Origin: Gemmatales bacterium
GTDB lineage: Bacteria > Planctomycetota > Planctomycetia > Gemmatales > HRBIN36
Assembly (NCBI GenBank): GCA_041640595.1
Contig: JBEPZY010000004.1
Span: forward strand, 1-64,000
Length of the DNA: 64,000 bases
Reading direction: 5' to 3'
This document shows positions 15,993-19,790 of the stretch, piece by piece; within the stretch, counting starts at the first letter, position 1; each line of letters opens with the position of its first letter. Both the position numbers and the translations under genes were made by a program. The notes under the pieces are model-generated. The model ran no database searches. It saw nothing but the letters and a program-made list of their open reading frames with translations, and was not told where the DNA came from.

Positions 15993-17207
15993 TTAACGTC
16001 GGCCATCCGCCTGCGGTGATTCTTCCCAATCCCACCAGGTCTCGCCGGGCTCGTAGGGGACTTCTTCCTCTTCCTGCGGCGGCCGACGGATGGCCGCTTT
16101 TACCGCCCACAGGCCGACTTCGTACAGCAAAACCATCGGCAGCCAGATAATCAGCAGACTCGCCGGATCCACCGAGGGAGTAACCACCGCTACGAGAATC
16201 AGCATCACAAACCAGGCAATCCGCCGTTTGCTGGCCATCTGTTCCGGCGTAATAATGCCAATCCGCCCCAGGACGTACATGACCAGCGGCAACTGAAAGC
16301 ACAGCCCCGTAATTACCGGCATGAGAATGGCAAAGCTCAGCCATTCGCTCAGCCGGAAATCCGGTTCGATGTTCAGCCACAAGTTGAACTCCAGCAAAGC
16401 CCTCAAGGCTGCCGGAATCACAAAAATTTGGCAAACCACCACGCCAATCAGAAACAATCCCACGCTCGGAAACAGCGAGTTATACACCAGTCGTTTTTCG
16501 TGCGGATACAGACCGGCCGCGATAAAGCTCCATATATGGTAGAAAATCCACGGGCTGGCCAGCACCAGTCCGGTAATGATTGCCACCTTGAACCAGACCA
16601 TGAACACTTCCATCGGGTTCATGGAAATGAGCGTAACTCGTTTGGAGACAATGCCGAGCGGGATGCGGAATTTCTCCAGAAAATCTATGGGCCGAACCGT
16701 GATCGTCGCCGGTATCGTGTCCGCATTGCCGTCGGCCGAATTGGCCTGGGGATCACCGAGATTCACATTATTGGCCGAGACTTCCGCACGACCCCCGGGC
16801 GACGCCTCTTGCTTGAACAGATGCGGATACATCTCTCGCAGGGCACGCTGCAATGCCTCCCGCGACAGGCCTGCTTCGAGCGCCACCGGTTCCACGAATG
16901 GTTTGAGATACGGTGCATTGGGATGCTTTTGCAAGTCCCCTTTTATTTGCTCCAGAATGCGCATTTCCCGGTCCGGATTTTTCTGATAATAGCGCCAGTG
17001 ATACTCCAGCAAGGCATTCTCTACGGGAGCCTGAATAATCCACAACACGTAATGGGCGATGAAGAAACTGATGAATACGGCAATAACGAAACTCCAGATG
17101 GCCCGCCACAGATGCTGTCGCAGGTCCTCGAGATGTTCGCCGAAAGTCATTCGCGTATCGGCAAACATGTCGTCGGGGTCGGGCAAAGGCGATTGCGTTC
17201 GCGCCAT
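15993..17207 (-). CDS. tatC: Twin-arginine translocase subunit TatC
   Basis: MTFGEHLEDLR, WSFIAAGLYPHEKR, FQLP, AVVTP; long loop after TM1. Confidence 0.95.
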   Translation of the reverse strand: MARTQSPLPDPDDMFADTRMTFGEHLEDLRQHLWRAIWSFVIAVFISFFIAHYVLWIIQAPVENALLEYHWRYYQKNPDREMRILEQIKGDLQKHPNAPYLKPFVEPVALEAGLSREALQRALREMYPHLFKQEASPGGRAEVSANNVNLGDPQANSADGNADTIPATITVRPIDFLEKFRIPLGIVSKRVTLISMNPMEVFMVWFKVAIITGLVLASPWIFYHIWSFIAAGLYPHEKRLVYNSLFPSVGLFLIGVVVCQIFVIPAALRALLEFNLWLNIEPDFRLSEWLSFAILMPVITGLCFQLPLVMYVLGRIGIITPEQMASKRRIAWFVMLILVAVVTPSVDPASLLIIWLPMVLLYEVGLWAVKAAIRRPPQEEEEVPYEPGETWWDWEESPQADGRR

Positions 17208-17408
17208 GGTGGTATTCCTGGATGCTGGCGGTGGAGGCGGTATCCATTAGCCAGCCCACCGCGGATAACGCTTCCCTGAATCCTCCTGCCACCGCCTGAG
17301 TGGCTCGTCTAACCCTGACACACAGGCATGGGTCGGGCCGTGTGCCTTTGTCGGTATCTTACGAACCAGGCCCCGGGGCAGCGCAGTGGCGAACGCTAAA
17401 ACGGCAGG

Positions 17409-18410
17409 CTAAATCTGGTAATTCGGTACCAGTTCGTCGTTGGGTCGCCGAATGCGTAATGACGGTTTTTCCAGTTGCACGACGGTGTGGGGCGGGACGC
17501 TGTGGGTGAGCCAGACGTTGGAGCCGATCACCGAGTGATGTCCGATCACCGTGTCTCCGCCGAGAATGGTAGCGTTTGCGTAAATGACCACCTCGTCCTC
17601 GATGGTCGGGTGGCGTTTCATGCCGCGGATGATTTTGCCATCGGCGTCGCGGGGGAAACTCAACGCGCCGAGCGTAACGCCCTGATAAATTTTGACGTTG
17701 TTACCAATGACGCAAGTCTCTCCGATCACCACGCCGGTACCGTGGTCAATAAAGAACGAATGACCGATCTGGGCGCCGGGATGGATATCAATGCCGGTCT
17801 TGGAATGGGCGTATTCGGTCATGATGCGCGGGATCAGGGGAACTCCGAGCAGATGCAACTCATGGGCGATGCGGTAGATGGTGATCGCCTCCAGGCCTGG
17901 GTAGCAGAAGACGATTTCGTGGTAACTCTTCGCCGCCGGATCGCCCTGATAGGCGGCGTGAACGTCTTCTTCCAGGAGATAGCGTAAATCGGGGATTTTG
18001 CGGAGAAATTGAATGGCTTTTTGCTGAGCGATGGCCTCGAAATCGCATAGTGAGTTTTCAGCGGACTGAGGTAAAGCGGGACTGTCCGCCTGGTTGCTGG
18101 CAGAAGACATCTGGGCACTGCGCTGGGATTCGTGCCGCAGGGCGCGTGCGATCTGCTGCGTCAGTTTGTCATGCAGACCGTCCACCAGATCGCCGACATG
18201 GTAGATGACGTTGCCCATGTGGAGGTTTTGTCGGCGGTGGTAGCCTGGATAAAGCAATTCCATGAGGTCGCCAAGAATATCGATGATCGCCTCCCGGCTG
18301 GGCAAGGGGTAATGCCCGAGGTGATTGATTCGCTGGCACATCATGTAACTTTCGACGATCGCTTCCGTGATTTCGGGAAGTGTCTCTTTCAGGCTGGGAT
18401 TACTGGCCAT
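17409..18410 (-). CDS. cysE: Serine O-acetyltransferase (CysE/EpsC type)
   Basis: [50 protein letters not shown]. Confidence 0.95.
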
Positions 18411-18509
18411 ACCTGACTCCTTTTCTGAGCATGATGGTAAGCGGGCACAGGGGTTGGTGTCATAAAAATTGGCGAATCAAACCTGGCGAGACAGACCGCA
18501 GGCAGAGTA

Positions 18510-18575
18510 TCAGCACCCGGCGACCGCCGGACACTTACAACCGCAGCTACAACAGCGTCGGTAGAAATATCGCAT
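18510..18575 (-). CDS. Putative cysteine-rich leader peptide MRYFYRRCCSCGCKCPAVAGC
   Basis: Hand-translated from ATG 18575 to TGA 18510. 6 of 21 residues are Cys; it ends 99 nt upstream of cysE. Confidence 0.7.
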   Translation of the reverse strand: MRYFYRRCCSCGCKCPAVAGC

Positions 18576-18612
18576 AAGCCGCGACCTTTACCCGGTCAAA
18601 GCTTCTACCAGG

Positions 18613-18640
18613 ATTATATCCCCAGCGGTTCTGCTGACAA
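18613..18640 (-). promoter_or_regulatory. Putative sigma70 promoter of the leader-cysE transcript
   Basis: TTGTCA-N16-TATAAT on the minus strand. Confidence 0.65.
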
Positions 18641-18746
18641 CTGCCCCTATAGATTGTCCGAGCCGAAGCCTAGGGCGGGCCAAGGACCCTGAAGCTGAGC
18701 CGAGCATGCTGACAATCGGCGTTATGGATTGTCCGAGGCGAAGCCT
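18633..18746. repeat. Two ~39-bp direct repeats (75-bp period), each with a GACAA-N13-TTGTC dyad
   Basis: gctgacaa...gattgtccgagccgaagcct at 18633 and gctgacaa...gattgtccgaggcgaagcct at 18708. Confidence 0.75.
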
Positions 18747-19142
18747 GAGATTGTATGCCGTCCTGGCCGGCAGCTTGCTGATCGCGGTTCTGCCGACGAG
18801 CCGGATTTCCACAGGACGTGCTGTTGCTGGCCCGCTAGCGTTCAGGAAGACCAGTGCGTGGCTTGGTGCGGATATCGGCCAGGTCTTGCGTAGGACTAAT
18901 CGGCAAATGGTTCGGCGACACTCAATGCCGGTGCTGCGAAAATTGACAGCTGCCGCGGGATGATTATGGCAACATGAATGCGGTTTGCTGCGTTTGCCAG
19001 GCCAGTTTTACGGCATGGCCAGCCGCCAGGACCAGAAGTGCTTTGTGCCCGACCGACAATTATCCGAAGCAAAACTTCGACATAGTTCGCGGTCTGGTTT
19101 GCCAAGAGGTGATGGGCAAAACGCCTGCCATTCGGGACACAG

Positions 19143-19790
19143 TCAGGAAGAAGGCGAGGCGTTGCTTTTCCTGCGATCGTAGATGGCGCGGAGGACGTCT
19201 TCGACAGCCTGAAACGGCCCCTGCGAGCGAACGCTGTCCACGAGCCGCCGGGCTTCGCTCACGGGATGACCCAGCGTTCGCAACGCTTCCACCGCCAGAT
19301 CGAGGATAGTCTGGTCGGTGGCAGGTTCGGGGAGCGGTTTGGGTTCGGCCCCAGCTCGAAGCAAGGTGAATTTGACGGCCTTTTTCTTCAAAGCCATGAC
19401 TACCTGTTCTGCGGAAGTTTTGCCCAGACCGGGCAGGCGGGTCAACCACTTCACATCTTCCCGAACAATCGCCTCGGCAATGTCGCGGATGGGTTCGGTA
19501 ATCGCTTTGAGTGCCCGCCGCACGCTCACCTTGTCCACACTGCACAGCAACTCGAAGAACTCCATTTCTGCCTCGTGAAGAAATCCGACCAACCGTGGCA
19601 CCAGGCGACCCTGCATGGGGTTGCCTTCGAGAAAATGGCTGACATGCAGGGTAACTTCCTGGCCCAGGCGTGACGTCAAGTTCTGACGCACCAGAGCCGG
19701 AACGAGAATGTCGTACTCCAACGGCCCGATTTCGAGCCGGACACTTTCGTCAAGAATCCGCACCAAACGCCCGGTGATCCGCGTAATCAT
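19143..19790 (-). CDS. ruvA: Holliday junction branch migration protein RuvA
   Basis: MITRITGRL, GFLHEAEMEFFELL, HhH motif LPGLGKTSAE, AVEALRTLG. Confidence 0.93.
   Translation of the reverse strand: MITRITGRLVRILDESVRLEIGPLEYDILVPALVRQNLTSRLGQEVTLHVSHFLEGNPMQGRLVPRLVGFLHEAEMEFFELLCSVDKVSVRRALKAITEPIRDIAEAIVREDVKWLTRLPGLGKTSAEQVVMALKKKAVKFTLLRAGAEPKPLPEPATDQTILDLAVEALRTLGHPVSEARRLVDSVRSQGPFQAVEDVLRAIYDRRKSNASPSS

Follow-up and report, generated by a model that had tools for sequence, protein, structure and literature searches.

The sole serine O-acetyltransferase gene (cysE) found in this Gemmatales bacterium is preceded by a short, cysteine-rich open reading frame (ORF) that very probably forms part of a ribosome-operated attenuator sensing Cys-tRNA, as judged from sequence comparisons across Planctomycetia. 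The window analysed here is a stretch of 64,000 nucleotides (contig JBEPZY010000004.1 of assembly GCA_041640595.1, positions 1 to 64,000). On its minus strand, a promoter is followed by the leader ORF, a hairpin (H1) directly 3′ of the Cys codons, the two strands (A and B) of an alternative helix, a C-rich stretch and cysE (Table 1). A first-pass annotation of this DNA had described the promoter, the leader ORF with five Cys in eight codons and the 99-nt spacing between its stop codon and the cysE ATG (18410), and had suggested that ribosomes translating the Cys codons control the gene. These features are all present, with a sixth Cys in the ORF, and the suggested control is strongly supported by the conservation and enrichment described below. 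Outcomes that would speak against it had also been named; among those that sequence can address, such as a lack of short Cys-rich ORFs upstream of cysE in relatives, none was found. The earlier interpretation as a whole is partly supported.

Table 1 Features of the cysE leader region in the window
Feature	Positions	Strand	Remarks
Promoter TTGTCA-N16-TATAAT	18613..18640	−	sigma-70-type, 11/12 matches; predicted start site near 18606
Shine–Dalgarno AAGGT of the leader ORF	18584..18588	−	weak
Leader ORF MRYFYRRCCSCGCKCPAVAGC	18510..18575	−	21 codons; 6 Cys in all, 5 in 8 codons
Cys13 codon UGU	18537..18539	−	proposed sensor codon; ends 6 nt 5′ of the CCGG hairpin
CCGGCGGTCGCCGG, hairpin H1, CCGGC/GCCGG	18517..18530	−	predicted fold; extendable to 10 pairs with G-U
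Segment A GGCGGTC, 5′ strand of the long helix	from 18528	−	inside CCGGCGGTCGCCGG
TCGCC, alternative partner of A	18489-18485	−
Segment B GATTCGCC	18471..18478	−	degenerate partner of A; predicted folds
AATTTTT, then C-rich stretch	18440..18470	−	place of the relatives' pyrimidine tract; candidate pause or Rho-loading region
Shine–Dalgarno AAGGAGT of cysE	18416..18422	−
Serine O-acetyltransferase (cysE)	17409..18410	−	333 aa; PDB match; sole copy found in the genome

CysE catalyses the committed step of cysteine synthesis. The window protein shows full-length homology to a solved serine O-acetyltransferase (PDB 9u39/6lcn; E 3e-134, residues 1–322). It scores 155.1 on NF041874 (EpsC), over the cut-off of 150, and 169.9 bits on NCBIfam TIGR01172, under the cut-off of 210.65; the window's genome (G000) holds one serine acetyltransferase match. 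Its C-terminal residue is Ile, which we take to be needed for binding to cysteine synthase.

The promoter scan returned two promoter-like sites, compared with 0.6 ± 0.7 in shuffled sequence. Counted from the predicted start site, 31 nt that include a Shine–Dalgarno (SD) sequence lie 5′ of the leader ATG. TATAAT is found 29–37 nt before this ATG, together with an SD sequence, in all five leaders of the genus, and the congeners carry GGAG or GAGGAG where the window has AAGGT. Among relatives, a promoter-like site lies 5′ of 24 of 44 leaders versus 4 of 78 leader-less regions. A weak promoter-like site (ATGACA-18-TACCAT, 9/12) is also present between leader and cysE at 18434–18463 (−) and resembles a promoter that 29 of 78 leader-less relatives have no more than 110 nt from cysE; it may be a chance match or a bypass promoter. 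A stricter promoter expression detected no site 3′ of segment A in 44 leaders. The promoter region further contains two 40-nt direct repeats (18632–18671 and 18707–18746), 83% identical and 75 nt apart, whose 25-nt core has no further copy in the genome; one of them overlaps the −35 box, so that a second copy of the −35 hexamer, lacking a −10, lies upstream. In four hot-spring metatranscriptomes, assembled RNA contigs span the leader and cysE and also cover DNA upstream of the promoter; the summed contig depth over the leader combines several strain contigs, reports neither strand, start nor level, and is not evidence of expression. No contig of the RNA runs covers 18790–19045, between ruvA and the cysE promoter, and contigs of three runs stop at 18789; this segment is possibly strain-variable DNA.

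Cys-rich leaders ending in PAVAGC(R) precede cysE in all three congeners (G001, G002 and G003) and in a metagenome locus (L042), so that the leader is present in 4/4 genomes of the window's genus. For the order, we examined the regions upstream of cysE in 118 of 245 cysE-bearing genomes, picked from the set of relatives and by similarity rank rather than at random. A strict test, which asks for a short ORF with at least three Cys in six codons near its end and for at least 280 nt of upstream sequence, identified leaders in 25 of 116 order genomes against 1.2 ± 1.0 in shuffled sequences. In these 116 genomes, the same test found no leader on the reverse strand, and none when applied to His or Tyr. 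A looser test for CxC or CC found 45 against 8.8 ± 2.7. Of 90 cysE-bearing genomes from other Planctomycetia orders, 80 were fetched; the strict test was positive in 18 (0.7 ± 0.7 shuffled) and the looser one in 31 (3.5 ± 1.5 shuffled; reverse strand 0). Because kin are not independent, the ratios for this order and for the others show that the leaders are real and do not measure the size of the effect. One family of another Planctomycetia order (f5) has a Cys leader in 0 of 23 genomes. The leader might be suspected to have arisen by chance in an intergenic region rich in GC and TG, given that five short intergenic ATG ORFs besides the leader carry at least four Cys in eight codons (6 of 2,461 in the genome). 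This explanation, which we regard as vanishingly improbable, is contradicted by the conservation of the leader and by the controls (shuffles, reverse strand and other residues). The leader thus has the attributes of amino-acid-codon attenuators: a short translatable ORF that is rich in codons for the end product, lies before a biosynthetic gene and is conserved. The cysK-like gene, cysH and cysS are located elsewhere in the same genome and have no such leader. Other Cys-rich short ORFs occur upstream of long ORFs at G000:C9:34847-34933 (−) and C1:874969-875022 (−).

Leaders that also carry the segment A core were collected by screening for Cys codons with the core behind them; this gave 53 loci, of which seven with a poor core were dropped and 46 kept (38 genomes and eight metagenome loci). 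The 38 genomes spread over 23 of 61 genera. The core is absent from 80 of the 118 order genomes examined, and in the window's family it occurs only in the four genomes of the window's genus, of 15. Core and leader go together: 32 of 33 core-bearing regions have a Cys leader. A covariance model (R1) has one significant match in G000 and matches in 22 of 150 order genomes (0 of 21 in genus g7); two strong matches outside the training set lie before cysE as well. A GTDB pattern scan placed the element before cysE in records of Gemmataceae (8) and Planctomycetota (1), while 6 of its 15 matches were non-planctomycete and had no cysE downstream. Searching the phylum with a pattern too strict to show absence in other classes gave 28 matches in 26 of 301 genomes, five of them beside cysE; the other 23 lie inside open frames of at least 266 codons and were taken as chance. 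Other layouts exist. In G004 (locus L002), the leader MRFLTAPFFCCPIA, with an SD sequence and two Cys and without the A core, lies 172–127 nt before cysE and is a third layout within the window's family. In L260, L264, L276, L285 and L319, from other Planctomycetia orders, the Cys run abuts the stop codon and no CCGG hairpin follows; these leaders resemble actinobacterial cys leaders, and their switch may differ.

The first-pass annotation had drawn a GGTAGAA/TTCTACC stem around the leader start codon. The two complementary segments exist (18609–18603 and 18566–18560), but the stem fails as a functional feature: its first three bases are upstream of the expected start site, it is absent from predicted folds, the four congeneric leaders have no common equivalent, and a variant at 18564 in contigs of three runs breaks the pairing. 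Folding and comparison instead point to 18530–18517, directly 3′ of the Cys run, as the conserved RNA element. CCGGCGGTCGCCGG occurs once in the genome and is identical in all five genus leaders, each of which can form a perfect H1 (CCGGC-GGUC-GCCGG). In other orders, 14 of 31 leaders have a CCGG...CCGG hairpin after the Cys run, and in an alignment of 17 rows CCGG, CGG and an upstream TGT are invariant. H1 has no covariation above shuffles, 34 and 105 of 500 of which reach its paired share.

In Gemmataceae-type leaders, segment A (GGCGRUC) follows the Cys run and pairs with segment B (GRUCGCC), which ends 30–67 nt from the start of A. We aligned 43 of the 46 leaders, leaving out two near-duplicates and L149. 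The seven-pair A:B helix is paired in 98.6% of 295 cells, with two-sided changes at three of the seven pairs, in an alignment (A2) that was trimmed around the best B match and is therefore biased toward the helix; 0 of 500 shuffles reached its score, and RNAalifold recovered the identical helix. The A:B rod and H1 are mutually exclusive, and single-sequence folds suggest that the window RNA can form both. A:B is weaker in the window's genus, where B is degenerate, and one of its pairs is disrupted by a minor strain variant at 18473. In the relatives, B is followed by a pyrimidine tract, with 85–97% pyrimidine at +7 to +12. The tract contains 39% C and 10% G, and C exceeds G in 37 of 39 leaders versus 32 of 78 controls; at least five U in 8 nt are found after B in only 5 of 39 relatives. 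The variable inner stem has a G-rich 5′ strand in 31 of 38 leaders and a C-rich 3′ strand in 30 of 38, a pattern consistent with a hidden rut site. Whole-leader folds are not more stable than shuffles (z = +1.0), and Rfam covariance models gave 0 matches over 17200–19300 at E up to 5. Two further pairings were rejected: a protector hairpin between Cys codons and A (79.6% paired; 477 of 500 shuffles as high), and pairing of the Cys codons with the stretch after B, which looks plausible by eye in the genus and ranks in the best tenth of cross pairs in 1 of 43 leaders.

CCGGCGGTCGCCGG is palindromic, invariant in the genus and devoid of covariation, as would be expected of a DNA site for a transcription factor with the ORF being incidental. 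We consider this extremely unlikely: the distance between the half-sites varies (loop of 4–9 nt), A covaries with a partner 30–67 nt away, the palindrome exists in a single genomic copy, and it keeps its frame relative to a Cys-rich ORF equipped with a start codon and an SD sequence. The position of the stop codon also speaks to the nature of the element. It is found at +13 or +16 in 36 of 46 leaders, later in five and on the first base of A in five. A ribosome would thus always reach A; and conservation of A even where the stop falls on its first base suggests that the core acts as RNA and not as peptide. PAVAG was rejected as a peptide arrest motif because the stop precedes it in the same five leaders. 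More generally, the nascent Cys-rich peptide might itself sense a metal, redox state or free cysteine and arrest the ribosome like CruR or TnaC. The CxC/CC spacing and the PAVAG sequence do look conserved as peptide, and the terminal Cys before the stop (18513–18515 (−) in the window) is kept in 5/5 genus leaders by both TGC and TGT. However, AVAG lies behind the stop in those five leaders, the remaining peptide varies freely, and the invariable UGU at a single position implicates decoding or RNA rather than the residue, which makes a peptide sensor very unlikely. Gemmataceae-type leaders do not keep the terminal Cys, and our model leaves it unexplained.

A UGU ends 6 nt before CCGG in 5/5 leaders of the genus and in 14/14 hairpin-bearing leaders of other orders (19/19), and 5 nt before the base of A:B in 39/39 Gemmataceae-type leaders. 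UGU is one codon closer to CCGG in the Gemmataceae-type leaders, and its distance to the helix stays at 5–6 nt. The 14 leaders of other orders were initially chosen for a last Cys within 0–7 nt and relocated with a gap-6 expression, and a gap of 6 had been seen in each; as 7 of the 14 have their last Cys at gap 0 or 3, the choice of leaders did not force the gap-6 codon. The Cys codon located two codons before the fixed UGU is mostly UGC (UGU in 5 of 37 at gap 11 and 2 of 10 at gap 12), and UGU makes up 34% of Cys codons in the long ORFs of G000. The genome has one tRNA-Cys, with anticodon GCA, which reads both UGU and UGC.

With UGU in the A site, the first base of the helix would lie 11–12 nt 3′ of the P site's first nucleotide (at +12/+13). 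According to the accessible part of Bao et al. 2020 (PMC7282821), this spacing equals the length of the mRNA channel and is the only one at which the dnaX and HIV stem-loops hinder A-site binding; the placement of these frameshift stem-loops matches UGU + 5–6 nt. Such an effect requires a specific stem length and structure, as stated in the available portion of Bao et al. 2022 (PMC8861025), so that a pausing role of the short H1 is offered only as a hypothesis, and its five pairs may fall short. A class-wide gate, in which the hairpin is parked at the entry channel while the wobble-read UGU occupies the A site and acts together with scarce Cys-tRNA on the ribosome, is therefore a tentative and rather doubtful proposal; were it true, attenuation would be tied to stem-loop-induced ribosome pausing.

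How could the leader act on cysE? When Cys-tRNA is scarce, the ribosome would pause at the Cys codons. Once UGU occupies the A site, the helix would be positioned immediately beyond the entry channel, where it could form and remain intact, and expression of cysE would follow. When Cys-tRNA is ample, the ribosome would enter and melt the helix and sit on it at the stop codon, and expression would be cut. Several Cys codons lie well upstream, so that a starved ribosome would lag and a fed one overrun, and for this reason we infer that the helix is the ON state. We hold this polarity, combined with a transcriptional output, with slightly less than even confidence within the sensing role. Folding under ribosome masks is consistent with it for small footprints: A:B forms (P > 0.5) in 38 of 39 leaders when the mask ends 5 nt past the last Cys, and likewise in 38 of 39 when the stall is placed at the preceding Cys; with the ribosome at the stop, it forms in 2 of 39. 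With masks reaching at least 8 nt (8–12 nt) past the last Cys, A:B is lost (0 of 39), and the predicted polarity therefore depends on the assumed footprint. For the leader of the window itself, A:B has a probability of 0.74 in the free RNA and of ≤0.01 under stall masks; the Cys15 and Cys21 codons lie on H1, where a stalled ribosome would sit on it.

Those longer masks would suit a sensor of opposite polarity, in which either helix (H1 or A:B) together with the tract is the OFF structure, acting as a pause or non-canonical terminator, and is melted by a ribosome stalled on the last Cys. The fixed pyrimidine peak after B would agree with this, as would the window itself, where Cys15 abuts H1 and AAUUUUU follows B. 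Earlier Cys codons, up to 20 nt or more upstream, would nevertheless halt the ribosome sooner, so that the helix could form unhindered; only 5 of 39 stems are followed by at least five U in 8 nt, and the stop at +13/+16 in 36 of 46 leaders keeps a terminating ribosome on the helix. We thus judge the opposite polarity to be fairly unlikely.

With the helix taken as ON, the cut would most likely result from Rho-dependent termination or from pausing close to the pyrimidine tract, because there is no U-tract terminator and no conserved pairing with the ribosome-binding site (RBS). The terminator scan gave zero terminator-like sites on the minus strand, in agreement with the first-pass annotation, which had seen no clear intrinsic terminator and had listed Rho-dependent termination and RBS sequestration as possible outputs. 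Rho is probably the route of a transcriptional output. Two Rho genes score over the cut-off in G000 (C6:247419-248666 and C1:927795-929036), and the relatives have a C-rich, G-poor leader tract, so that both components of uORF-controlled Rho attenuators are present; a third Rho-like gene (C1:118031-119116) scores slightly under the cut-off. Simulated rut exposure does not add support: with the ribosome at the stop, accessible YC amounts to 7.3 versus 6.6 (22 higher and 13 lower of 39), and the longest single strand is longer in 13 and shorter in 20 of 43, so that equilibrium folds show no consistent change of rut access with ribosome position. Protection of the mRNA from RNase J was dropped as a candidate, RNase J not being found in G000, which is 95% complete.

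RBS sequestration is not supported for the window leader, in which the opening energy of the RBS is 11.5 kcal free and 11.6 under every ribosome mask. Translational attenuation as in Ms5788A, with Cys codons, B or the tract pairing with the cysE SD sequence unless a ribosome is stalled, would be in line with stall masks that open the RBS by more than 1 kcal in 17–19 of 44 leaders and close it in 3–5, although masking alone removes structure. By eye, GACAGG beside the SD sequence in several leaders of one genus is complementary to their Cys codons. Comparison of own with cross duplexes, a weak test whose positive control reaches 10 of 43, placed Cys codons:RBS in the best tenth in 6 of 43, the tract in 2 of 35 and B in 2 of 43 leaders; in the window, the duplex between Cys tract and SD sequence is weaker than 94% of cross pairs. 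These results leave a translational output distinctly unlikely.

Leader-peptide transcription attenuators are classically known from trp, his, thr, leu and ilv. One of this kind lies in the same genome before a citramalate-synthase-like gene (G000:C1:1043457-1043590 (+); L297:258-390) whose best match is TIGR00977 on a 199-aa part. Its elements are a promoter-like site, an SD sequence, the leader MLVRVGRIGEAVIIITGL, which probably senses Ile, GGCC stems that compete with each other, and a T6-bearing hairpin. Both the leader and the terminator are also present in G001, G002 and G004. Ribosome-coupled attenuation is thus within the repertoire of this genome. The cysE leader shares with the classical attenuators and with this cimA-like leader a promoter, an SD sequence, codons for the end product and, as far as folds predict, alternative helices (H1 versus A:B). 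In contrast to the classical systems, it has neither a terminator hairpin with U-tract (the cimA-like one ends in T6) nor a fourth segment pairing with B, and its control codon lies just 5–6 nt from the helix.

A comparative attenuator survey by the Lyubetsky group from 2010 reportedly could cover some of the leaders described here. We found no literature report of a planctomycete Cys leader within a search that most subscription journals lay beyond; PMC4833913, in the part consulted, mentions leader genes of Planctomycetes only statistically, with no ‘cys’ in its main text. Cys-codon leaders as such are already known in Actinobacteria, and what we describe is a planctomycete version with a fixed UGU and a helix. 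Attenuation by leaderless polycysteine sORFs has been proven in mycobacteria (Ms5788A, and Rv2334A before cysK1-cysE; Canestrari et al., bioRxiv 10.1101/834739), in a preprint whose accessible part does not mention planctomycetes. As far as that part describes them, the mycobacterial sORFs likewise have a Cys run near the ORF end, precede cysteine genes including cysE and use the ribosome as sensor. They differ in being leaderless, whereas the planctomycete ORF has a 31-nt leader with an SD sequence; the Cys tract of Ms5788A pairs with the SD sequence, whereas no conserved SD pairing was found in planctomycete leaders; and a separate helix at a fixed distance after the Cys run is seen only on the planctomycete side of this comparison.

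Leader peptides of actinobacterial cys and cbs genes had been predicted by Seliverstov et al. 2005 (PMC1262725). In the portion available, these resemble the planctomycete leaders in having a Cys run near the stop, no terminator and poly-pyrimidine motifs, there proposed as Rho sites. Conserved hairpins are lacking from them as described in that portion and their polyY is not conserved, whereas in Planctomycetes, a different phylum, the helix shows covariation and the tract has a constant position. A review of uORF-controlled, Rho-dependent attenuators (PMC12360218) covers mgtL/mgtA, corL/corA, mgtM/mgtC, tnaC, speFL and cruR and, in the sections consulted, names no cysteine case. In mgtA and corA, as summarized there, uORF stalling gives a Rho-resistant fold and efficient translation a Rho-prone one, which is the logic that we propose here. 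The signals in those sections are Mg2+, Trp, ornithine or Cu; for the planctomycete leader, the signal would be Cys-tRNA, and a switchable rut site is only proposed.

Terminator-less Cys-codon leaders have lacked a mechanism outside mycobacteria since the predictions of 2005. With codon and spacing both fixed and a helix that covaries, this mechanistic question becomes testable. For a poorly studied phylum, the leader would provide a concrete switch for feedback by cysteine on the committed step of the pathway, available in dozens of natural variants.
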